Source of the DNA: an uncultured Poribacteria bacterium
GTDB taxonomy: Bacteria; Poribacteria; WGA-4E; WGA-3G
Direction of reading: 5' to 3'
DNA length: 64,000 nt
NCBI GenBank assembly: GCA_951813565.1
Contig: OX638351.1
Coordinates: 4,717,506 to 4,781,505, forward strand
Shown here piece after piece: positions 6,437-57,300 of this stretch. The notes beneath the pieces are model-generated. The model was not told the DNA's origin. It searched no databases and saw only the letters and a program-made list of their open reading frames with translations. How positions within the stretch are numbered: the stretch's first letter is position 1; each line of letters begins with the position of its first letter. The position numbers were made by a program, and so were the translations under genes.

Positions 6437-8389
6437 ATGAGTCAAACAATCCCCTCCAAAAAGGAAAACTCTCTCATGCAAAAAATAGTAGTTTTAATTT
6501 TAACAATTACGTCGGCGATATGTATTATTCCTGAAAACACGACTGCACAAGACACACAAGATTGGCATTTGCGCCATCTACCCGAAGGCGTGAAAGCGCG
6601 ACTCGGTAGAGGCGGTATAACAGGAAACATCGCCTATTCGCCTGACGAAGAATATTTAGCGGCGGCGAGTAGCATCGGCATTTGGGTCTATAACGCGCAA
6701 ACAGACGCACCGCTCCAGTTACTCACAGGACATACGGGTAGAGTCACGAGCATTGCGTTTAGTCCAGACCGTTCTTTATTGGCAAGTGCAGGTGAGGACA
6801 AGACCGTCCGTTTGTGGGATGCGCGCACCGGCACTGAACTTCGGACAATGGTGGGACACAATTGGGGTGTTGCAGGTGTAGCGTTCAGTCCAGATGGCAC
6901 ACTGTTAGCAAGTGGGTCCCATGACTCGACCGTCAGCCTATGGGATGTGCACACCGGCGAAGAACTCAGGACAATGGACGGGCATACAAAGGATGTCTTA
7001 TGTGTTGCTTTTAGTCCGGATGGTGCTACACTGGCGAGTGCAAGTGATGACAGAACGTTGCGTCTGTGGGATGTGCAGACAGGCGCATTGGTGCGAACAA
7101 TGAAAGCGTATGAAACAGATGAAATAAAAACCGTTGCGTTTAGTCCGGATGGCAAGACAATTGCAAGTGCCAGTAATCATAACAGCGCACATCTGTGGGA
7201 CGCACAGACGGGCAAATTACGCAGCGTGTTGGAAGCACATAATGATAGTATTGGTTTGGAAGGACATAATAGTGATATTGATAGTATTATCTTCAGTCCA
7301 GACGGATCAAAACTGGCAACTGCAAGCCAGGACTACACCGCACGTCTATGGGACGCACAGACAGGAACACATCTCCGCGCGCTGAAAGGACACACGTCTA
7401 ATGTCTTGAGCATCACGTTTAGTCCTGACGGAAAGACGGTGCGGACCGGTAGTCGGGATGGCACCATCCGCTTGTGGGACCCAAACACCAGCGTGCAGTT
7501 GCGGACGATAAGCGGACATACGAATCGTGTCTATAGCGTTATGTTCAGCCCGGATGGGAAAGTGCTTGCCAGCGGAAGCATGGACAATACCATTCAATTA
7601 TGGGATACGCGGACAGGAGAATCGCTTCGTGTGCTGAAAGGACATACTCAGCCTGTCAGTAGCGTAGTGTTCAGTCCGGATGGGAAAACTATCGCGAGTG
7701 CTGGTGAGGACGGGACCATTCGTTTATGGGATGCGCAAACAGGGGAATCTCTTCGGACACTGAAGGAGCATCGATTTTGGATATCAAGTCTTGCTTTCAG
7801 TCCAGAAGGGGAGAAACTCGTAAGTACCGGTGATGGCAAAGCACTGCGTGTGTGGGATACGCAAACAGGTGAACAAAGACATATTCTGATGCATATCGAG
7901 GAGATCAATAGTGTTGCGTTTAGTCCGGATGGGTCTCTGGTGGTGTGCGGACTTGAAAACGGCAGCATCCGCTTGTGGAACTCGAATAAACCGGCCACCG
8001 ATAAATTTGGCTGGTCATTGAAAAAGCATACGGGTCCTGTAAATAGCGTTGCGTTCAGGCCGGATGGGTCTTTGTTAGCAAGCGCATCTGAGGATGGTTC
8101 TATTCGTTTGTGGAATCCACAGACGGGTGAATCTATCCGGACAGTGAAAACAGAAGGGAGTCCTTACCGTTGCGTTACGTTTAGTCCGGATGGGAAGATA
8201 TTGGTGAGTGGCGGTTGGGACGCGACCGTCAGTTTATGGGATGTACGCACTGGCGACCTCATTATCGAGTTGAAAGCACATACATCTCTTGTGAATAGCG
8301 TTACGTTTAGTCCGGATGGAAAAACACTGGCGAGTGGAAGTTCGGATGGCACTGTGTTGTTGTGGGATCTCGCGGTTGATGTGGATTAG
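6437..8389 (+). CDS. secreted WD40-repeat (beta-propeller) protein, ~14 repeats
   Basis: 650 aa; N-terminal signal-like hydrophobic segment; repeated GHTxxVxSVAFSPDGxxLASGSxDxTIRLWD units ending in LWD/WD. Confidence 0.9.
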   Translation: MSQTIPSKKENSLMQKIVVLILTITSAICIIPENTTAQDTQDWHLRHLPEGVKARLGRGGITGNIAYSPDEEYLAAASSIGIWVYNAQTDAPLQLLTGHTGRVTSIAFSPDRSLLASAGEDKTVRLWDARTGTELRTMVGHNWGVAGVAFSPDGTLLASGSHDSTVSLWDVHTGEELRTMDGHTKDVLCVAFSPDGATLASASDDRTLRLWDVQTGALVRTMKAYETDEIKTVAFSPDGKTIASASNHNSAHLWDAQTGKLRSVLEAHNDSIGLEGHNSDIDSIIFSPDGSKLATASQDYTARLWDAQTGTHLRALKGHTSNVLSITFSPDGKTVRTGSRDGTIRLWDPNTSVQLRTISGHTNRVYSVMFSPDGKVLASGSMDNTIQLWDTRTGESLRVLKGHTQPVSSVVFSPDGKTIASAGEDGTIRLWDAQTGESLRTLKEHRFWISSLAFSPEGEKLVSTGDGKALRVWDTQTGEQRHILMHIEEINSVAFSPDGSLVVCGLENGSIRLWNSNKPATDKFGWSLKKHTGPVNSVAFRPDGSLLASASEDGSIRLWNPQTGESIRTVKTEGSPYRCVTFSPDGKILVSGGWDATVSLWDVRTGDLIIELKAHTSLVNSVTFSPDGKTLASGSSDGTVLLWDLAVDVD

Positions 8390-9852: not shown

Positions 9853-10079
9853 CGACTTGTGTTAGTTAACTATTTGTTTGTATTCTTTTCACACATATTG
9901 AACTCATGTTATACACATATCGTCCCTACCAAATCAACGTCAAATGCGCTTATGGCATTTGTCGGGACTGAAGAAGGAATCAACTAATGATAAAAACTAA
10001 CAAAACGTCATGTAATTGTGAAACAATATTTTACAAATAGTTATTTAGCACAACACGTCTTTATAATAAAGAAGTGATC

Positions 10080-11060: not shown

Positions 11061-11283
11061 TTGATTTCTGAAATAGAGTATGACTATTTGGTATTAGGAT
11101 TTTTGCACAAATTTATTGATGAGTCGCGAGCTGGAGCTCGCTCCTACAGGAAGAGTCTTGAGCAGAAGATTGGAAAGGCATTGCCGCTTTAAACTTGTTT
11201 GAAAATTTCAGAGTTTCAGAGTAAAGTGCGAAATGCAGCCACGAAATTGGAATATAAATTTGACGTTAGTAACTTTGCTGCAA

Positions 11284-20540: not shown

Positions 20541-20642
20541 GGAAAAAGATAAGATTTAGCCCATTTCTCTTTTTTCACCAAAGTTATTTTGTAATCCCGA
20601 CGCAACGTCATTAATTTTGAACTCTTTCTGAAAGGAACAGAT

Positions 20643-21002
20643 ATGCAAGACGAACAGCGGACAGATATACAAGACGAAGAGCAGACAGATATACAAGACG
20701 AACAAGGCACAGAGGAAAGAAAAATAATCCCTCCAGAAAATAAAGCTATCCGATTTGTTATTTTGGGTATCCCTTATTCTATTAAGCCGACAGATGAATT
20801 AACCGGTGAGGACATCGACGTTTTGGTTAGTTATGTTAAGCAGCGGATAGAACGTTATATGCAAAAAGGTTACGATCAGACACGAATTCCGATTCTTGTA
20901 GCTTTTGATATAGCGAATGAGTTGCGGGAGTTGCAGAAGTTCTACGAATTACCGATTAACCGTGCTATTGACAAACTTAAGTTTGTCTTGGAACCGGAGT
21001 AG
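20643..21002 (+). CDS. zapA: cell division protein ZapA-like, with N-terminal acidic tandem repeat
   Basis: 119 aa; core IRFVILGIPYSIKPTDE...IPILVAFDIANELREL matches the ZapA fold pattern. N-terminus QDEQRTDI/QDEEQTDI/QDEQGTEE is encoded by 2.5 copies of a 24-bp tandem repeat (20646-20717). Confidence 0.7.
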   Translation: MQDEQRTDIQDEEQTDIQDEQGTEERKIIPPENKAIRFVILGIPYSIKPTDELTGEDIDVLVSYVKQRIERYMQKGYDQTRIPILVAFDIANELRELQKFYELPINRAIDKLKFVLEPE

Positions 21003-25877: not shown

Positions 25878-26040
25878 TATAGTAAAACCTATAATTAATG
25901 GGATACTTCTGTAGCGCAAACTTTTAGTTTGCGTCTCATAAGGCACAAACTAAAAGTTTGTGCTACAGCTTCTATTGTCCATTATCTTTCCAAGATAAGT
26001 TTATCAAAGTGTCCCAATAATTTCAAAGTTCACTATAAAT
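25878..26040. repeat. ~165-bp interspersed repeat with 24-bp internal stem-loop; second copy at 53408-53843
   Basis: Near-identical to 53408-53454 plus 53733-53843. Contains hairpin TGTAGCGCAAACTTTTAGTTTGCG...CACAAACTAAAAGTTTGTGCTACA. Confidence 0.8.
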
Positions 26041-26347
26041 GGGATTAGTAGTTTATGACTTGTTAAACGCGTTGTGCCAGTTAACATTTGGTATATTTAT
26101 ATTTCACATGTTCCTTTTGTTTGGGTTTGCATTCCGCAACTTTTCCGATAGCTGCTGTCCTCAAGGTAGGAGGGAACTCCGATTCCCGACTGCAAACGTG
26201 TCGCGATTCGGAGATCGCTCCCGCCAAATGCCAAAAGCGTATTTGGCGTTGATTCCAAAATATGAACAATTGTGAAAAATAACAAAACTTTCACTTAACT
26301 GGCACAAGTCGTTTGTTAAATAAAAGTGCTGAAGTCAAATTTGTTTT

Positions 26348-26460
26348 ATAGTAAAATCCACAATTACCTGGACATTGGCGAGGTTAGGATACCTCGCCAG
26401 CGCAAGCGTGTGGAGATTGTTGTTGATTGAAATGTGAACATATTTTCGGATTTTACAATA
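26348..26460. repeat. ~115-bp MITE-like repeat containing the TGGCGAGGTTAGGAAACCTCGCCAGC hairpin
   Basis: ~93% identical to 48618-48733; hairpin core also at 8494-8520. Confidence 0.8.
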
Positions 26461-26492
26461 ACTTCAGAACTTTTTAGGTTTTGATACGGCAA

Positions 26493-29703: not shown

Positions 29704-30264
29704 TTACTGAGTATACCGATAACTTGCAGAATCAGTAAAAGATGACCAAGGCCCGAAGTTGCCGCAAACACCAGAGTCTTTTGCGTCATACATGCCGCCG
29801 CCCTTGTATTTACTTCTACCCTGTGTATCTGGTGTTCTCGTTTTCACTGTAGTCTCTTTGGTTGTAATTGTGCCATCTTCGTTTGTTATTTCTATCTCAA
29901 AAGTTTCTACTGTAACTGTAAGTTTTGCGTAAATTGCGCCTGCGTCAGTATCTGGTGATGCATCATTGCCGCTATAGATTGTAACATACGCAGAAGCTTC
30001 ACCACTTAAGTTCACTGGAATTCCACTTTCTGTGGCTGCTTCCATAATTGAAGCAGCATTGACAATACCGGGTGATGCCGAGGCGTTTGCCCCAGATTCA
30101 GTTGCATCAGCGGAAACGCTAAAACTCCAACCTTCGTCGTAGTTTGTATCAGAAAAAGAACCAATTGATATGTTGCCATCTTGACCATGTGTTTGCAAAA
30201 TAACGCCGCCAATGGCAAAAAGCGTGGTAAGGAACAGCGTGATTACAACAACTTTCTTATTCAT
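29704..30264 (-). CDS. hypothetical secreted protein (186 aa)
   Basis: Signal peptide MNKKVVVITLFLTTLFAIGGVIL; AAGGAG SD 9 nt upstream; Ser/Thr/Gly-rich. Confidence 0.6.
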   Translation of the reverse strand: MNKKVVVITLFLTTLFAIGGVILQTHGQDGNISIGSFSDTNYDEGWSFSVSADATESGANASASPGIVNAASIMEAATESGIPVNLSGEASAYVTIYSGNDASPDTDAGAIYAKLTVTVETFEIEITNEDGTITTKETTVKTRTPDTQGRSKYKGGGMYDAKDSGVCGNFGPWSSFTDSASYRYTQ

Positions 30265-30463
30265 CTGAAAATCTCCTTTAATTTTGACTTCCTTGCAATA
30301 GCAAGTGAACTATAGTAAATGGAGAAATCTAACCTGCAAACACCCATTGCTACAATCTGATGGTAGTGCAAGTTAGTATATATTCTCCTATTGTATTCGT
30401 CAAACAAAATTAATCTCCTCCTGCCTCCTACAGGCGGAGGCAGGAATGCTACAGTGTAAACAT

Positions 30464-30590
30464 AAAAAGCCCGCGACGAGATGTTCTGTCCGAAACAAAA
30501 CGCGCAGGCGCGAAAATATCGCAGATTTTAAATCCTGCGATACGACCTTGTGATATCCAATAATTAACGATTGTGAAATGGGGGGGGTAA
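30464..30590 (-). promoter_or_regulatory. conserved upstream cassette with palindrome and poly-G(8) tract; paralogous copy at 50810-50947 with poly-G(19)
   Basis: Shared core AAAATATCGCAG(A/C)(T/A)T(T/A)TAAATCCTGC(G/A)ATA(C/A)GACCTTGTGATAT, ...ATTAACGA..., and a G-run (30580-30587 vs 50929-50947). Both copies lie 160-330 bp upstream of minus-strand secreted-protein genes. Confidence 0.6.
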
Positions 30591-31237
30591 ACACTGTGAA
30601 CTGAGAATAAACACCGAACCAGAGCGCAGCATCAATAGCCAAACTTTGCTCAGGTCGCTGCATCTGGCACAACTGCTTTTTGAATTGTAGTGGTGTTCGC
30701 TGTCGGTTTCTCATTTCCAGTCCCTTTGTAGAAATGCAAAATAAACTAACGATGGTAGAATTTTCTCGGTTTAAGATTATGCTTACAAAAATCCAACTTG
30801 AATAACAAACAATCCCAACTTTTTGGAATTCGTAAAATTTTTAGGGATTTATACAATCTCCAATCAATATTGGACACACATATTTAATTCTTGTCAAATT
30901 ATTTTTATGATTATGCACGTAAAAACGAAATTTTTTTCAAGCTTTTCTTCAGATTTATCAGGGTTATTTAGTTTTCGGATTTTCTGGCATTTTTTTATCA
31001 CGAACGTTAATATGTTATAGTAGTATTATAGGTCGAGTTTCGCTTGCGAAACCCGACCTACGAAATAAACTTTTTGTGATATTGATCAACTGACATTTCT
31101 TAAAACTAAATAGCCCTGCAGATTTATTTTAAATTAACACAAAATTAAGGAACACAAGAGCCATGTGAGCAAAATTACGCCACACGAAAACGAAAATACG
31201 GTATAATCTAACCATTAGATATAGGTTTTATTATAGA

Positions 31238-33718: not shown

Positions 33719-34414
33719 TTAAGCCTCAACGTTGATCGGAATTTCCGTTGGTTTTGCCTCTTCCGTTTTCGGAATCTCAATTGTTAAAACACCATCCTTG
33801 AATTCGGCTTTTATACCATCAGCTTTCGCATTTGGTGGAAGTGGGAGAACACGTTTAAAACTCCCATATCGCAGTTCCGACCGGCGTGGGTGTTGCGTTT
33901 CGTCTGTCTGCTTCCGCTCCTTTTTTCCTTTTACCTTTAATAGATTGTCAGTTACAGAAACAGTGACATCGTTTTGTGAAACGCCAGGGAGTTCAACTAA
34001 CACTTCATACCTATCTTCAGAAACAGAAAACTCAATGGGTGGCCGCCAATTGGATTTTCCTCTTTTCGTTTTTCCCTCACGATACGCGAACCTTCTGTCA
34101 AAAACGTGCCTCATCCGATTGTGATGTAGGAAAATATCTCGCATTGGATGATGTGGTCTGAAGTTTGCTTGTGCTGAACGGCGAAGATTTCTCCTCCCTC
34201 TCGGGGGTTGATGTCCCCAATTTCCGCGTGCTACGGGTGGTCGGTGTCGTCGTGGACTTCTTGCTTGTGATGGTTCTTGCCTTCCTTCTTCAGGATGTGG
34301 CGAATGGTGGCGGCGTTGTCTCCTTCCCCGTCTGGGGCCTCTTCCTTGTGCGGACTGATGTTGACGTGGTCCTTTAGAACCACCTCTGGGACCATGTTGC
34401 GGTCTATTTCTCAT
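33719..34414 (-). CDS. Hsp20/alpha-crystallin family small heat-shock protein with 90-aa Arg/Pro/Gln-rich N-terminal extension
   Basis: C-terminal 140 aa align with the two paralogs downstream (ELPGV...DGVLT...P motifs). The long form starts at 34414 with strong SD AAGGAG 8 nt upstream. The extension is GC-rich and low-complexity (RRGRRQRRHHSPHPEEGRQ...). An alternative short start at 34144 has no SD. Confidence 0.65.
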   Translation of the reverse strand: MRNRPQHGPRGGSKGPRQHQSAQGRGPRRGRRQRRHHSPHPEEGRQEPSQARSPRRHRPPVARGNWGHQPPRGRRNLRRSAQANFRPHHPMRDIFLHHNRMRHVFDRRFAYREGKTKRGKSNWRPPIEFSVSEDRYEVLVELPGVSQNDVTVSVTDNLLKVKGKKERKQTDETQHPRRSELRYGSFKRVLPLPPNAKADGIKAEFKDGVLTIEIPKTEEAKPTEIPINVEA

Positions 34415-34565
34415 TTCAATTCTCCTTTTTCTGATCTTGTATTCTAATTATTTTCTTTTTCACTGTATTTGACCACTACACTTATGAAATTGTTCGGTAT
34501 AAGCGATGCAAGGTTAACAGGGCAGGCACAATTAATTGTACCTGCCCTGCTGTTTTGGAATTATT

Positions 34566-35021
34566 TTAACTCTCTTGCGGAGCATCCACAGTTGATTCAG
34601 CAACGATCGGAATTTCTTTTGGCTTTACCTCTTCCGGTTTTGGGATGGACAACGTCAGGACACCATCTTTGAATTCTGCTTTGATGCTGTCAGCCTCAAC
34701 TTTTGGTGGAAGTGTAAATCTCCGTTCGAAGCTTCCATAACACCGTTCGACTCGCCGGTAGTCTTTAGAATCGTCAGTTTTTTCCTGTCGTTTTTCTCCT
34801 TTTATTGTTAAGAGATCGTCTTTGACAGAAATATGGACATCGTCCTTTGTTACGCCAGGTAGTTCAGTCCGAACTTCAAAACTATCATCCGTTTCGGAAA
34901 TATCAGCAGATGGTCTCCACTTATATTCTTGTGTCCCAGGTCTTTCAAAAAACGGCGTGAACAGAGAGTTATAGAATTTGAACGGGTTTACTGCTGGTCT
35001 GTGTAAGGTCAAATAGGTCAT
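34566..35021 (-). CDS. Hsp20/alpha-crystallin family small heat-shock protein
   Basis: 151 aa; FEVRTELPGVTKDDVHISV...FKDGVLTLSIPKPEE. Confidence 0.9.
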   Translation of the reverse strand: MTYLTLHRPAVNPFKFYNSLFTPFFERPGTQEYKWRPSADISETDDSFEVRTELPGVTKDDVHISVKDDLLTIKGEKRQEKTDDSKDYRRVERCYGSFERRFTLPPKVEADSIKAEFKDGVLTLSIPKPEEVKPKEIPIVAESTVDAPQES

Positions 35022-35089
35022 TTTTATTCTCCTTATAGTGTAAGGTTTATCGCCTGTGTTATATAGTAGGCATGCGTAATTATGTTGTG

Positions 35090-35542
35090 TTAAGCATTTG
35101 CAGTAATCGGAATTTCAGTTGGTTTTGCCGCTTCCACCTTCGGTATGGTGAGGGTCAAAACCCCGTCTTTGTATCCTGCCTTTATATCAGCAGTTTCAAC
35201 ATTTCTCGGAAGTGTAAAACTTCTTTGGAAACTTCCGTACCGTCTTTCCACTCGGTGATAGTTTTTGTTATCTGTCTCCTTTTCCTGCCGTTTTTCACCT
35301 TTGATTGTGAGCAGGTTATCGGTTACTGAGACGTTGACATCGCTTTCCGTAACCCCAGGAAGTTCGGCACGAATTTCAAAGCCGTTTTCCATTTCAGAGA
35401 TGTCTACTGTGGGCATCCAGGAAGTGGGATCACCGTTGGTTTCACTTTCCTGAGAAGCGAATAGATCTCCAAAGATTTTTCCCATTTCGTTGTGAAGGTT
35501 GAATAGATTTCCTACCGGTCTGCGTGTTGCTAAATGTCTCAT
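35090..35542 (-). CDS. Hsp20/alpha-crystallin family small heat-shock protein
   Basis: 150 aa; FEIRAELPGVTESDVNVSV...YKDGVLTLTIPKVEA; GGAGAAG SD. Confidence 0.9.
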   Translation of the reverse strand: MRHLATRRPVGNLFNLHNEMGKIFGDLFASQESETNGDPTSWMPTVDISEMENGFEIRAELPGVTESDVNVSVTDNLLTIKGEKRQEKETDNKNYHRVERRYGSFQRSFTLPRNVETADIKAGYKDGVLTLTIPKVEAAKPTEIPITANA

Positions 35543-42599: not shown

Positions 42600-42900
42600 G
42601 TGAATACCATACGCGTATTCGCCCAAGTGCGCTTGGCGTTGATTTGGCAATGAATTGCGCTTGGTGAATGCGCCAAATCAAGAAATCAACGGTATGAATC
42701 ATGGCGAATCATGTAGAATACCAAAAGCGTATTCTACCAAGCGCATTCGTCTTTATACCAAATTACCCTAAATCGTAGGGGCGGGTCTCTGTGCCCGCCC
42801 TTACCATCGGCAGTGAAAACAATACAATTCTCGTTAATTTGGTATTAGTCATTCAGCGGGTATGAATGCCTTATGGCATTCCCCGTATGGCATTCACATT
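42600..42900 (-). repeat. inverted copy of a ~150-bp interspersed repeat (R-150 family), interrupted by a nested 89-bp MITE (42756-42844) that itself carries a REP hairpin
   Basis: Reverse-complement match to 57144-57300 and 48966-49126. The insertion has 10-bp TIRs TACCAAATTA/TAATTTGGTA, a TA/TTA target duplication, and encloses TGTAGGGGCGGGtctctgtgCCCGCCC. Confidence 0.75.
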
Positions 42901-48617: not shown

Positions 48618-48733
48618 ATATGGTGAACTTTATAGTAAAACCCACAATTACCTGGACATTGGCGAGGTTAGGAAACCTCGCCAGCGCGAGCGTGTAGGGA
48701 TTGTTGTTGATTGAAATGTGAACATATTTTCGG
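48618..48733. repeat. second copy of the ~115-bp MITE-like repeat (see 26348-26460)
   Basis: TATAGTAAAACCCACAATTACCTGGACATTGGCGAGGTTAGGAAACCTCGCCAGCGCGAGCGTGTAGGGATTGTTGTTGATTGAAATGTGAACATATTTTCGGATTTTAC. Confidence 0.8.
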
Positions 48734-48965
48734 ATTTTACTATAAAATGGGACACATTTTCTGTCCGAGTGATCTCCGAATCGTGACCCAATCCACTGAT
48801 ACTTGGGAATCGGAGTTCCCTCGGACAACTGAAAATGTCGTGTTAATTCTAAAATTTACTATGCATGAATCAGTTAACTGAGGGGTGCGCATAAATAATT
48901 CCGATGTTAAATATGCGCTTAAAGGTAATAGGCACACGCCGTGGGTTTCCGTCCACAAGTTCAAA

Positions 48966-49206: not shown

Positions 49207-49869
49207 CTAACGATCCCTTTTGATACCTCCCCAGGTTGTTGCTAATTTATTCAGCGGTTCTACTGGGGTGCCATCTCCTTCAATATCATCACCAGAAACC
49301 GTGAAGTCATCAAAACTTACCCCAGTTTCCCATCCCCAGACACCGACTTGGCCAGCACCATATACAGCATCAGCAAATTCACCTTGTTCTTCGCCATCAA
49401 TTGAGAGTGCCATGATATCACTCCCAACGCTAACTTTCATGTCATGCCATTTGCCTCTTTCAATTGTGATGTTTTTTCCTGGCAGTTGACCGATATTGTC
49501 GCGGGCGGTCCAACCACCTGTTTTGTGCCGCCAGAGTTCTGTTTTGTTATCCGGCACATTAAAATAAAAGACATAGTATTCCATTTCGCTTTTTGCGCGG
49601 AATGCAATGCCTGCCCAATTACCTTCATCAATGCGAACTTTCGCTTCAATTGTGTAGTCTGTCCAAGCGACATCACCAACGAGGGAATGTTCCGCTGCGG
49701 CACCCTTATTAAGCTTATAGATGCCGTCTTCTACGCTCCAGTTTCCATTAGCAACCTTCCAGTCGTCTGCACCAGAGTCAAAAGTCCATAATTGTGCACC
49801 TGCGAAACTGTTAGAGACAGACACTGCTATGAAGCAAAATCCGATCATAATCAAAAATAAACGTTTCAT
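49207..49869 (-). CDS. secreted DUF1080 (3-keto-disaccharide hydrolase-like, concanavalin-fold) protein
   Basis: 220 aa; signal peptide; WKVANGNWSVEDGIYKL...HSLVGD..WTDYTIEAKVRIDEGNWAGIAFRAK. Paralog of the next gene. AAAAGGAG SD. Confidence 0.8.
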   Translation of the reverse strand: MKRLFLIMIGFCFIAVSVSNSFAGAQLWTFDSGADDWKVANGNWSVEDGIYKLNKGAAAEHSLVGDVAWTDYTIEAKVRIDEGNWAGIAFRAKSEMEYYVFYFNVPDNKTELWRHKTGGWTARDNIGQLPGKNITIERGKWHDMKVSVGSDIMALSIDGEEQGEFADAVYGAGQVGVWGWETGVSFDDFTVSGDDIEGDGTPVEPLNKLATTWGGIKRDR

Positions 49870-49967: not shown

Positions 49968-50651
49968 TCAACGAACCTGTTTGAGACGTCCCCATGTTGT
50001 TGTAAGTTTGTGGCTTGGGTCAACAGCGAGCGTATCCTCTATGTTATCACCGGAAACGGTGAAATCATCAAAACTTGCTCCAGTTTCCCATCCCCAAACC
50101 CCAACTTTGCCTTTATCATAAACATTATCCGTATCTTCGATCTGTTTTTCATCATTGATATACAGCGTAAATTTGTTGTCCTCAACGACTACCTTCACAT
50201 CAAGCCATTCATCGTTTGCAATTTTGACGCCTCCAATTGCAGGTGGCTGAGAAATGTTGTCACGTGCAGCCCAACCCCCGGCTTTGTGTCGCCACAGTTC
50301 AGATATATTGCTGGGAACATTCAAATAATAGACATAATATTCCATTTCGCTTTTGGCTCGGAATACAATACCTGCCCAATTTCCCTCATCAAGTCGGATT
50401 TTCGCCTGAATGGTATAGTCGTCCCAATCTTCTTCACCAATAAGCGAATGTTCAGCTTGACCACCCTTGCTAAGCTGGTAGACACCATCTTTGATTTGCC
50501 AATTGCCGTTAGCAACTTTCCAGTCCCCGTAATCTTTCTCAAAATCCCACAGTTGTGTCCCTGCGGATGCTGGAAAAGAAATCAGCACACTACAAAGAAT
50601 GAAAAGACCCAAAACGGCTAATTTCGTCAATACGCTATAATTTTTTAACAT
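49968..50651 (-). CDS. secreted DUF1080 (3-keto-disaccharide hydrolase-like) protein
   Basis: Start moved to internal Met (MLKNYSVLTKLAVLGLFILCSVLISFPASA) preceded by an AAAGGAG SD. The ORF-track start at 50735 lacks an SD. Confidence 0.8.
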   Translation of the reverse strand: MLKNYSVLTKLAVLGLFILCSVLISFPASAGTQLWDFEKDYGDWKVANGNWQIKDGVYQLSKGGQAEHSLIGEEDWDDYTIQAKIRLDEGNWAGIVFRAKSEMEYYVYYLNVPSNISELWRHKAGGWAARDNISQPPAIGGVKIANDEWLDVKVVVEDNKFTLYINDEKQIEDTDNVYDKGKVGVWGWETGASFDDFTVSGDNIEDTLAVDPSHKLTTTWGRLKQVR

Positions 50652-50809
50652 TTTAACTCCTTTCTTTTTGTCAAATTCTACGATCTTAATATACATAAGA
50701 TATGAATTGAGTTTCACTTGGTGCGTCCTGTTCAATTATATCCTGTTGTAGTGCATGGTCCGCTTGCACAACGAGGAGACAAACATTGAAGTATTCTCCA
50801 ATGCAACAA

Positions 50810-50947
50810 CAAAAACCCGCGACGATATGCCTCGTTTGATAACGAAGCACGTGCGGGCACAAAAATATCGCAGCATATAAATCCTGCAATAAGACCTTGT
50901 GATATATATGAAAAATTAACGAATTTTCGGGGGGGGGGGGGGGGGGG
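50810..50947 (-). promoter_or_regulatory. second copy of the conserved upstream cassette with poly-G(19) tract
   Basis: See 30464-30590. G-run 50929-50947; possible -35/-10 (TTGCAG-16-TATTTT) inside the conserved palindrome on the gene-sense strand. Confidence 0.6.
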
Positions 50948-51513
50948 TATAATGAAGCTCTGGTTAAAACAAATCCAGCGGGTATTGTGCAAAAACAATC
51001 CTGTTCAGAAAGTAGGAACCCTACGAACTTATTTCCGATTGACGATTTCGCATATCTATACTTCATTTTATCCTCAGGTATCCAGTACTAAACTGCGTGG
51101 CATTATAATATTCTATTCGCGTCATGCGATTTGTAAAATTCATTATACTTAACATCTTGTAGAATGTCAACTTTTCTTGAAAATGGGTGTGTAAATATTT
51201 TGGCATTAACCATGTCATTTTCTTGTTGGAGGGCTTCGTCCGCCCGATAAATCCAAATCAACGCCTCATGCGCGTATGGCATTCACATTAAACACCGCTA
51301 ACCTTAAGAAAATGTCCAGGTGTTTTTAGATTTTACTGTAATCTGAAAGTATAGAGCTGGACACCTGTTCTTACAGAAGATAGGCATTTAACAAACGATT
51401 GAAAATATGGAGAACTAAATGACCTGTGAAATTGAGTATGTAAAATTGCCATGAAGAATTACGGAGACTGTGTGTCGGACATGAATGTGCGGATTCGAGG
51501 TCATACTCATTAT

Positions 51514-53407: not shown

Positions 53408-53843
53408 TATAGTAAAACCTATAATTAATGGGACACTTCTGTAGTGCAAACTTTATGAAGATTAATTTATTAATTCGGTCCTTCTGATCTCTTTTCTGTC
53501 TGAATCACGGATTATCGCGGAGAACGCAGAGGACGCGGAATTAAGAGTTTCTTTGTTACCGACCCGTCTCTTGCGAAAGGAAATGTAGCAGACACAAAAG
53601 CATTTTCCGCGTCCTCTGTGTTCTCTGTGCCTTCCGCGATTCAGACAACCAGATAATGCACCTCATACAAGAAAAACATAAAACAAGATGTCTATCGTTA
53701 GAAAATTACCGAAATATATTCTTAATCTTCATTTAGTTTGCGTCTCATAAGGCACAAACTAAAAGTTTGTGCTACAACTTCTATTGTCCATTATCTTTCC
53801 AAGACAAGTTTATCAAAGTGTCCCAATAATTTCAAAGTTCACT
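53408..53843. repeat. second copy of the ~165-bp repeat, split by a nested 278-bp MITE (53455-53732) with 11-bp TIRs ATGAAGATTAA/TTAATCTTCAT
   Basis: 53408-53454 and 53733-53843 are collinear with 25878-26040. The insert lies exactly inside the repeat's 24-bp stem and itself contains a ~40-bp imperfect inverted repeat (53498-53538 vs 53611-53651). Confidence 0.8.
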
Positions 53844-53848
53844 ATAAT

Positions 53849-54472
53849 TTAGTCTTGTGCATCCCTACTGAACGCAGTTTCAAAGCGTTGCCGCAATATA
53901 TCTGGGCTGGTATGCATATAGATAAGCGTTGCGTCTAAACTTGTGTGTCCTAATGCAATGCGTACCGATTCTAAATCGTGCGTAGCGCGATAGAGTTCTG
54001 TGCCGAAGGTATGGCGTAAATCGTGGGGGGTGAATCTTAGCCCTAACATTGCTGATGCTGCTTCCATGATTCGCTGAAAGTCTCGGGGTGCGAGGCGGTT
54101 TTTTGTGCGGAGCGTGCAAAACAGGGGACTGTCCACATCGTCTTTTTCGCCTTGTTCAGTTTTCCACATTAAGAAATCGTGGAGTGCGTCTCGGACATCG
54201 TTGACGAGAGGAAGTCTCCTTGAAACCTTATTTTTTGCGATTTCTGACCGGACTTCTAACGTAGTAACAATGTTTCCAAATTTGAGCACATCCCCGATAT
54301 TCATGCCGCATGCCTCAGCGTTTCGGAGTCCTGTTCGGAGGCAAAAGAGTACGAGCATTCTATCGCGTTCTCTATTTTTGAGTGTTTCTAAAAGGATTCT
54401 CTGTTGTAATTCGTCGAGTACTCGGGGTTGTTGTACTTTTTTTCTTTTTGATTTCGCCATTTGGCTCTCCAT
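53849..54472 (-). CDS. small tyrosine site-specific recombinase (catalytic domain only; FimB/FimE- or shufflon-type size)
   Basis: 207 aa; box I Arg (LRTGLRNAE), HDLRHTF (H-x-x-R), nucleophile Tyr in LIYMH. No N-terminal core-binding domain. Confidence 0.85.
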   Translation of the reverse strand: MESQMAKSKRKKVQQPRVLDELQQRILLETLKNRERDRMLVLFCLRTGLRNAEACGMNIGDVLKFGNIVTTLEVRSEIAKNKVSRRLPLVNDVRDALHDFLMWKTEQGEKDDVDSPLFCTLRTKNRLAPRDFQRIMEAASAMLGLRFTPHDLRHTFGTELYRATHDLESVRIALGHTSLDATLIYMHTSPDILRQRFETAFSRDAQD

Positions 54473-57143: not shown

Positions 57144-57300
57144 CCGACAAATGCCATACGGGGAATGCCAAAAGGCATTCATACCCGGTGAATGACTAAA
57201 GACGAATGCGCTTGGTAGAATACGCTTTTGGTATTCTACATGATTCGCCATGATTCATACCGTTGATTTCTTGATTTGGCGCATTTGGCGTTGATTTGGC
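57144..57300 (+). repeat. R-150 family interspersed repeat (full-length direct copy)
   Basis: GCCATACGGGGAATGCCAAAAGGCATTCATACCCGGTGAATGACTAAAGACGAATGCGCTTGGTAGAATACGCTTTTGGTATTCTAC...GATTTGGC. Confidence 0.75.

Follow-up and report, generated by a model that had tools for sequence, protein, structure and literature searches.

A putative translated attenuator with a variable repeat tract precedes secreted-protein genes in sponge-symbiont Poribacteria

Introduction

Why would two unrelated genes for secreted proteins in an uncultured Poribacteria bacterium carry, upstream of their starts, the same sequence of about 130 nucleotides (nt) with a run of G residues that differs greatly in length between them? 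The question arises from a 64,000-nt stretch of contig OX638351.1 (assembly GCA_951813565.1, positions 4,717,506 to 4,781,505), the whole of which is called the window here. A preliminary description, made from the letters of the window, took the shared sequence for a transposable regulatory cassette with a promoter embedded in its palindrome, an attenuator at its end, and a homopolymer subject to slipped-strand phase variation. From comparison of many copies we conclude that this cassette is merely the 3' third of a minus-strand unit of about 400 to 450 nt, the tail of a small leader gene. The best reading of the unit is a simple-repeat switch that would act via a translation-coupled attenuator; we infer both the switching and the readthrough.

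Results

The shared element itself was confirmed by reading and by alignment. Copy A occupies positions 30464 to 30590 and copy B about 50805 to 50950, with about 80% identity in pairwise alignment. A 27-nt core, AAATCCTGCNATANGACCTTGTGATAT, has two exact matches in the window (30530 to 30556 and 50879 to 50905) and none in 100 shuffles. The boxes AAAAGCCCGCGACGA and AAAACCCGCGACGA, the palindrome, and ATTAACGA are present at both copies, and the G-runs have the lengths first described, 8 G at 30580 to 30587 in copy A and 19 G at 50929 to 50947 in copy B. These two runs are the only G/C homopolymers of at least 7 nt in the window, and a scan of it with a covariance model built from 21 copies returned copies A and B only (128 and 131 bits). 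Both stand upstream of minus-strand genes, at 29704 to 30264 (A) and 49968 to 50651 (B). On the gene-sense strand, conservation runs about 250 nt further upstream than the cassette noted earlier.

The anatomy of the unit was read on the gene-sense strand from an alignment extended 330 nt upstream. It begins with a promoter, aaaaaGTTGACA-17-TATAAT, and a TTGACA-17-TAtAAT box aligns in at least 12 copies besides copy B. A 5' untranslated region (UTR) of 60 to 90 nt leads to a Shine-Dalgarno (SD) sequence (GGGGAT, AGGGA, or GAGGAT) and a conserved ATG or GTG, which together form the most conserved column block 5' of the tract. There follow an open reading frame (ORF) of 35 to 45 codons, a poly-C tract (the G-run as read on this strand), a near-invariant TTCGTTAATT box, an AT-rich spacer of variable length (9 to 22 nt), a hairpin termed P1 (UAUCGCAG/CUGCGAUA in the unit alignment), a terminator termed T1 (GCCCGC...GCGGGC, then UUUUGUUGUU), and often a second hairpin or terminator, T2. 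In sequence, an SD and a short ORF between a promoter and a co-oriented gene form the arrangement of leader-peptide attenuation, and the GC-rich stem and U-tract predicted between the leader ORF and the gene have the form of an intrinsic terminator.

The proposed search for further copies and the genes that follow them brought the total to 26, all in Candidatus Poribacteria (at least 14 metagenome-assembled genomes [MAGs], plus sponge metagenome contigs). An exact-pattern scan over 185,579 species genomes gave 17 loci, every one in a Candidatus Poribacteria MAG. A metagenome scan added only 3 loci and look-ups of the few predicted peptides another 4, and two more assemblies of the window's own strain were recovered (L026 and L027). 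One locus, L001, is a contig of a related strain with 97% identity. Across the 26 copies the order of promoter, SD, ATG or GTG, ORF, tract, TTCGTTAATT box, P1, and T1 is kept, and on this census the leader unit is found only in sponge-symbiont Poribacteria. The idea of a transposable cassette was not supported by the comparison. No terminal inverted repeats were found flanking either window copy, and conservation at the unit ends fades gradually in the copy alignment, which is not the form of a miniature inverted-repeat transposable element (MITE) or transposable cassette. Instead, the copies appear to spread by duplication along with their genes, as at L013.

Reading of the leader depends on the tract. 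Of about 23 copies that could be scored, 14 have an ORF that opens at the conserved start, passes through 9 to 21 C read as prolines, and closes at the same TAA in the box, where chance would give one-third. The C-termini in this frame (frame 0) are PPPLHIR or PPPAKIR followed by the stop, for example, ...INYKLITPPPLHIR and ...YPPPPPPPAKIR. The tract encodes at least three prolines in most copies, the exceptions being L019, L011, and L024.

Beyond the conserved TAA, stop codons are nearly absent. Stops were counted from the TAA to the end of the T1 T-run (80 to 108 nt) in 20 copies and all three sense frames, which gave 4 sense-strand stop triplets, against 86 ± 7 expected from shuffles and 93 on the antisense strand; three of the four lie in the frame that has already terminated. 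The two alternative frames stay open until past the T1 T-run in nearly every copy, so that, in the manner of pyrBI, a leader ORF spans the terminator in these two frames and not in frame 0, which stops at the box TAA. Since the copies are homologous, the test was repeated on the variable segments alone, using unique sequences. The spacer contained 0 stops (13.2 expected, 41 antisense), the P1 loop 3 (12.9 expected, 13 antisense), and the terminator loop 1 (14.6 expected, 13 antisense), each with P < 0.0002. Stop density falls from 4.98 per 100 nt over the 110 nt preceding the tract to 0.27 within the element and rises again to 3.94 over the 110 nt that follow T1. The length of the spacer between box and P1 takes every phase across the copies, so that each frame of the core is somewhere used as an alternative one, and no protein in a shifted frame is conserved. 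It is the openness of the frames, by this comparison, that is conserved, and not a protein. Given the stop-free stretch, any gain or loss of one base in the tract would therefore send ribosomes across the terminator. A conserved extended protein in a shifted frame, as in a programmed recoding gene of the dnaX or insertion sequence type, was considered and rejected, as the spacer phase varies and the shifted peptides differ.

The tract that sets this frame varies in length among assemblies. It ranges from 8 to 21 C, as is typical of the hypermutable repeats of slipped-strand phase variation, and in silico its length fixes the frame relative to the TAA, with the alternative frames crossing the terminator. 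For the window's strain, copy B is available in three assemblies that differ by at most 4 mismatches over about 2 kb of flank, and its tract reads 19 C in the window, 16 C in L026, and 9 C, a G, and 17 C in L027. Another pair, L009 with 10 C (frame 0) and L022 with 11 C (a read-through frame), is otherwise identical across about 400 nt. All 19 G/C runs of at least 8 nt in about 200 kb of fetched loci lie inside this element. In L019, about 10 CACCA units (9915 to 9965) stand in place of poly-C; the ORF still ends HIR-TAA, and the unit is otherwise typical. This replacement speaks for selection on the mutability of the frame and not on polyproline or poly-C in themselves. The proposal that the homopolymer is a contingency tract thus gains support, both from tract length as the apparent sole difference between consensus assemblies of one strain, to which homopolymer error could contribute, and from the pentanucleotide repeat in L019. 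The tract does not lie in a promoter spacer; it is part of the small ORF, where it is read as prolines and determines which frame meets the conserved stop.

Tracts are interrupted in L001 and L021 (CCCACCCC in L001), L011, L024, and L010. In L023 (3125 to 3135) the box stop is lost through a change of TAA to GAA, and in the leader of protein P0003 the stop has become a Tyr codon. Such stop-loss leaders read across the terminator in every frame and would be naturally "locked" variants.

The ratio of nonsynonymous to synonymous substitution (dN/dS) of the leader is 0.47 to 0.99, which suggests that translation of the leader matters more than the peptide sequence. Divergence is much greater in the ORF than in the 3' element, and together these features are typical of a regulatory leader ORF, not of a functional small protein. 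A leader-peptide profile found only 6 protein-database matches and no Pfam family, and an exhaustive HMMER search with the peptide P0002 gave 1 match; the copy B read-through ORF returned only its own variant from the protein databases. A small antisense ORF on the plus strand, ending ...NIAAYKSCNKTL and seemingly conserved in three copies, was rejected, as its frame is broken by indels and its stop is absent from several copies. Annotation should take note that leader ORFs are hardly ever called, while read-through ORFs are entered as hypothetical proteins.

P1 and T1 are predicted both in single-sequence folds (RNAfold z = -2.1 to -4.6, the latter for the whole element of copy B) and in the consensus fold. 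Stem cells are paired in 98 to 99% of cases across copies, and 17 G-U cells are valid on the sense strand only; in L001, changes in the palindrome keep pairing solely as G-U on the minus strand. P1 is therefore best taken as an RNA hairpin, and the palindrome does not bear out the promoter once read from it, lying instead in a transcribed, translatable leader. The GC-rich segment and T-run that had been proposed as an attenuator coincide with the predicted intrinsic terminator T1, which supports that proposal. T2, where present, is a second terminator in copies other than B (GUUGCAU..AUGCAAC followed by U6), whose stem sequence varies while pairing is kept. P1 is in addition a candidate pause hairpin for RNA polymerase (RNAP). 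An antiterminator of the trp or his type was sought and rejected: neither the minimum-free-energy nor the centroid nor the consensus folds show an alternative pairing, and inspection by hand gave only a weak 6-bp possibility. The whole window has no Rfam 15 match at the gathering threshold, matches around copy A at E of 10 or below are chance-level miRNA and snoRNA hits only, and a tRNA and tmRNA search of the window found none. In several copies (L005, L007, L010, L014, L015, L016, L018, and L022), a long conserved hairpin, AATAACAcGAGAACATG...CATGTCTCCTGTTATT, lies about 50 to 110 nt past T1, after the second terminator, and overlaps a promoter-like TTGAAA-17-TATTGT site.

Downstream sequence is available for 19 copies, and in each of them the nearest ORF on that side points the same way as the unit and starts 190 to 350 nt past the core; 17 of the 19 have a signal-like hydrophobic N-terminus, compared with 47% of background ORFs from the same loci. 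A transposase insertion and a methyltransferase gene account for the two exceptions. The downstream proteins are mutually unrelated and mostly lack a Pfam family. The placement of the element in the 5' region of co-oriented secreted-protein genes, first noticed for two genes, is thus borne out. Transposase genes (DDE_Tnp_1 and others) adjoin leader units in several genomes, downstream in L009 and L015 and upstream in L022 (1953 to 2834), and one transposase insertion replaces the promoter region of a leader unit.

Copy B is a complete unit, with consensus promoter, SD, start codon, and 19 C; all its features lie on the minus strand. Its promoter matches the consensus at 12 of 12 positions (51142 to 51170: TTGACA at 51170 to 51165, a 17-nt spacer, and TATAAT at 51147 to 51142) and lies about 230 nt upstream of the cassette palindrome. 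The SD, GAGGAT (51075 to 51070), and leader ATG (51066 to 51064) were verified in the sequence (51064 to 51075). As assembled, with its 19 C (50929 to 50947), the leader ORF has 126 codons (50686 to 51066), runs in a frame that misses the conserved TAA, and continues across hairpin and terminator. A tract of 18 or 21 C would bring its end to 50916, and the orthologous copy L017, with 21 C, ends ...PPPPPPPAKIR-TAA. The ATTCGTTAATTTT box (50912 to 50924), near-invariant in 21 copies, holds the frame-0 stop at 50918 to 50916. RNAfold places P1 at 50859 to 50899, with a core stem UAUUGCAG/CUGCGAUA at 50866 to 50891 and a possible stem extension ACAAGG/UUUUGU. In the predicted fold, T1 (50805 to 50859) has a stem GCCCGCACG...CGUCGCGGG around an inner hairpin, followed by UUUUUGUUGUU, and a second hairpin, GCAUUGGAG-AAUA-CUUCAAUGU, lies at 50783 to 50804. 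The downstream gene (49968 to 50651) encodes a signal-peptide protein of the 3-keto-disaccharide hydrolase (DUF1080) family (PF06439, 5.7e-14) with a hydrophobic N-terminus. It forms a tandem pair of PF06439 paralogues with 49207 to 49869 (about 75% DNA identity), and of the two only the gene that is transcribed first has the leader unit.

Copy A, also on the minus strand, looks like a decaying copy, because its promoter is degenerate, its gene has a promoter-like site of its own, and its tract is interrupted in relatives. The promoter homologue, TTGGGA...TGGATT (30790 to 30818), was found by alignment with the TTGACA-17-TATAAT of other copies and was not detected in a promoter scan. The leader ORF as assembled has 104 codons (30400 to 30714; ATG at 30714 to 30712, SD AAGGGA). 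Its tract of 8 C (30580 to 30587), which in the related strain is interrupted, puts it out of frame with the TAA (30566 to 30564) of the AATCGTTAATTAT box (30560 to 30572), and it reads across P1 and T1; both window copies are thus assembled in a read-through frame. The predicted fold places P1 (UAUCGCAGG..UCUGCGAUA) at 30517 to 30542 and T1 at 30460 to 30510 (stem 30469 to 30509, T-run 30464 to 30468). Between this terminator and the gene, a promoter-like TTGACG-17-TATACT (30375 to 30403, matching at 10 of 12 positions) may free the gene from the decaying leader. The gene (29704 to 30264) encodes 186 amino acids (aa) with a signal-peptide-like N-terminus and no Pfam family.

Discussion

On balance, we lean toward reading each copy as an attenuator built on a leader ORF, in which a hypermutable simple-sequence repeat determines the output. 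A strong sigma-70-type promoter would drive the leader transcript, and ribosomes would start at the conserved SD and ATG and translate about 35 to 40 codons into the poly-C tract. In frame 0 they would meet the conserved TAA 12 nt past the tract and be released about 25 to 35 nt before P1 and about 65 to 75 nt before T1; P1 and T1 would then fold, transcription would stop, and the downstream gene would be OFF or low. With a base gained or lost in the tract, the TAA would be missed, and as the next 80 to 110 nt are stop-free, ribosomes would translate across P1 and T1 and keep the terminator hairpin from folding, so that RNAP could enter the secreted-protein gene (ON). The outcome would be a contingency switch with a ratio of 1 OFF to 2 ON. 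P1 followed by AUAUUUUU may serve as a pause site that synchronizes ribosome and polymerase. We infer, from sequence, that the leader is translated, that translation across T1 suppresses termination, with the effect in the direction just given, and that the tract changes in vivo at a useful frequency. There is experimental precedent for the logic. A terminator near a translated region or within it is repressed, and the farther the stop codon lies from the terminator, the more efficient termination becomes (PMC4824070), while frameshifts in rph-pyrE shift the stop codon relative to the pyrE attenuator and change attenuation (PMC2784333).

Several points weigh against this reading. The tract differences come from consensus assemblies and might reflect errors of assembly or sequencing at homopolymers; the contig of L022 has 1x depth, and those of L026 and L027 were built by SPAdes from short reads. 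Promoter-like sites lie between terminator and gene in some copies (TTGAAA-17-TATTGT, the L007 type), so the downstream gene may not need readthrough. A covariation test of P1 and T1 was not significant, the sequence being too conserved, and the predicted helices rest on thermodynamics and strand asymmetry; the same conservation hints at an additional, sequence-specific partner outside our model. Homologous copies are non-independent samples, a problem that the variable-segment test of the stop-free stretch reduces and does not fully remove. Frame 0 past the TAA is also stop-free, which is explained only indirectly, via the changing phase of the spacer. Finally, most consensus assemblies are in frame 0, as a functional small protein would also predict.

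The alternative that survives best, though we hold it to be unlikely, keeps the same architecture and moves the change of frame to the RNA or the ribosome, through a +1 shift on CCC-C or polymerase slippage on the C/G run. The leader would then be a physiological sensor (of tRNA-Pro, elongation factor P [EF-P], or proline status) or a fixed-ratio leak and not a heritable switch; in a related version, it would be an mgtP-like leader in which stalling at Pro codons alters the coupling of transcription and translation. The prolines encoded by most tracts fit this alternative. Loss of EF-P uncouples translation and raises intrinsic termination on polyproline mRNAs (PMC5021804), and CCC-containing sites are known for +1 shifts (PMC5009743). 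The stop-free stretch fits it equally well, and the preponderance of frame 0 among assemblies is what it expects if frame 0 is the genomic ground state. It is hard to reconcile, however, with the (CACCA)n of L019, which encodes no PPP and is a classic unit of DNA slippage, or with the interrupted tracts of L011 and L024, which encode fewer than three prolines. Moreover, tract length differs in the genome between otherwise identical assemblies, and nine copies are genomically fixed in read-through frames.

It is improbable, in our judgment, that the unit is instead an independent gene for a small protein (about 45 aa, with C-terminal PPPLHIR) with its own 3' UTR and terminator, in which case the neighboring gene would reflect synteny and the tract differences noise. 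Such a gene would account for the consensus promoter, the SD, and the terminator, for the same stop ending 14 copies, and for some conservative replacements, such as AAG to CGG (K to R) in L007. It would not account for the dN/dS values, for a noncoding 3' part far more conserved than the ORF, or for a peptide that has no Pfam family and is nearly absent from protein databases. A 3' UTR offers no reason for a stretch that is stop-free in all frames and whose limits coincide exactly with the stop codon on one side and the T-run on the other, and the co-orientation of the downstream gene in 19 of 19 copies also speaks against it.

We give an equally low chance to the proposal that P1 and its flanks bind a trans-acting factor (an antiterminator protein or small RNA) or sense a ligand and so control T1, with ORF and tract secondary. 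The very high conservation of ACAAGGTCTTATCGCAGG..CTGCGATATTTTTGTGCCCGCAC across species, which is of sequence and not just of structure, is the observation in its favor. It is countered by the Rfam results and by folds that show no alternative antiterminator pairing, and it leaves the conserved SD and start, stop, tract, and stop-free stretch unexplained. A mobile promoter module, with -35 and -10 hexamers in the palindrome and promoter activity modulated by the length of the G tract, is hardly credible: the element is multicopy and a weak 9/12 promoter-like match overlaps the palindrome of copy A, but copy B has no such match, the tract lies outside the proposed pair of hexamers, upstream of both, the region is read through from a 12/12 promoter and a conserved ORF farther upstream, the G-U substitutions indicate an RNA hairpin, and terminal inverted repeats are lacking.

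The repeat-set leader attenuator that we favor combines parts of known systems. In pyrBI and pyrE of Escherichia coli, as in our model, ribosomes translate an upstream ORF as far as an intrinsic terminator or across it, and whether transcription ends there depends on where the ribosome or the stop codon lies with respect to the hairpin. The signal in those systems is UTP-dependent polymerase pausing and the frameshift was an accidental laboratory mutation, whereas the Poribacteria unit combines a hypermutable repeat of its own with a terminator free of stops, an arrangement that looks designed to turn frame itself into the signal. In Salmonella, the short mgtP leader ORF, with consecutive Pro codons, lies upstream of a structure that decides transcription elongation. 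The Poribacteria leader is likewise an ORF with Pro codons ahead of an elongation-deciding structure, and EF-P-dependent coupling does affect intrinsic terminators (PMC5021804). However, mgtP and mgtL use alternative stem-loops and physiological stalling; in the Poribacteria unit no alternative pairing was found, the Pro run is replaceable by (CACCA)n, and the alternative frames are open.

Simple-sequence-repeat contingency loci of Neisseria, Haemophilus, Campylobacter, and Helicobacter carry poly-G/C or 4- to 5-nt repeats and share with our unit a long repeat whose length sets the reading frame, surface or secreted targets, and some interrupted, "locked" tracts. Their repeats lie in the structural gene (1 ON to 2 OFF) or in a promoter spacer, while the Poribacteria repeat lies in an upstream leader ORF, would act via a terminator (1 OFF to 2 ON), and could thus serve unrelated genes as one module. 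The surface protein gene cwpV of Clostridioides difficile phase varies via a leader intrinsic terminator in the OFF transcript (PMC2784873), so that, as proposed for our unit, switching acts downstream of the promoter, through a leader terminator, and on a surface protein; it differs in its use of recombinase-mediated DNA inversion and in having neither a translated leader nor a repeat tract. In the ermC leader, a ketolide-induced frameshift makes ribosomes unfold downstream structure (PMC5009743, section 28). As in our model, a frameshift in the leader ORF bypasses the leader stop, unfolds mRNA structure, and turns on the main gene. The ermC event is drug induced and ribosomal and acts on sequestration of the ribosome-binding site, that is, on translation, with no role for a terminator or repeat tract.

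Our literature searches turned up neither a description of a repeat tract that gates a terminator from within a leader ORF nor, for Poribacteria, any report of phase variation. That the unit represents a kind of contingency switch not described before, a portable leader carrying in its small ORF a hypermutable repeat that toggles the passage of ribosomes across a purposely stop-free terminator and yields stochastic, heritable ON and OFF states of unrelated secreted or surface proteins, has in our view a little under an even chance of being right. If true, it would be the first evidence for phase-variable surface architecture in an uncultivated sponge symbiont, joining slipped-strand phase variation and translation-coupled attenuation in a compact module that can be placed before any gene and inverting the usual switch ratio to 1 OFF to 2 ON. 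An obligate, uncultivated sponge-symbiont lineage would then diversify its secreted and surface proteins stochastically, with a bearing on how symbionts avoid host phagocytosis, or phage, within sponges. The stop-free stretch between leader stop codon and terminator T-run also offers a search signature for translated attenuators.

Additional features of the window

The window holds several other repeats. A MITE-like element of about 118 nt occurs as copies with 95% identity at 26345 to 26461 and 48629 to 48745, built around a GC hairpin with terminal inverted repeats of about 32 nt (TTTATAGTAAAAyCCACAATTACCTGGACATT). Its 33-nt box also stands alone between genes at 26007, 27927, 33602, 42922, 47670 (reverse complement), 51310, and 53816. 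A 116-nt repeat with a palindrome is 98% identical between 25923 to 26038 and 53732 to 53847. The second copy adjoins the 3' end of a small tyrosine recombinase gene on the minus strand (53849 to 54472; Phage_integrase, 2.7e-29), and this repeat is possibly a recombination site or another switch. A perfect 89-nt inverted repeat, with arms at 42667 to 42755 and 57197 to 57285 that lie 14.4 kb apart and shared blocks of 50 to 60 nt nearby, could mark an invertible segment or the paired ends of a mobile element.

GC-rich hairpins ending in CCTAC/GTAGG and resembling repetitive extragenic palindromes, for example, GTCGCGAGCTGGAGCTCGCTCCTACAGGAAGA, lie at 11123, 11725, 30420 to 30445, 32689, 42766, 43000, 57526, and 57570, one of them directly after the terminator of copy A. 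Among coding and tandem features are an array of WD40-type 126-nt coding repeats at 6740 to 8382, a 24-nt tandem repeat in three copies at 20637 to 20713, and three tandem HSP20 genes at 33719 to 35400.

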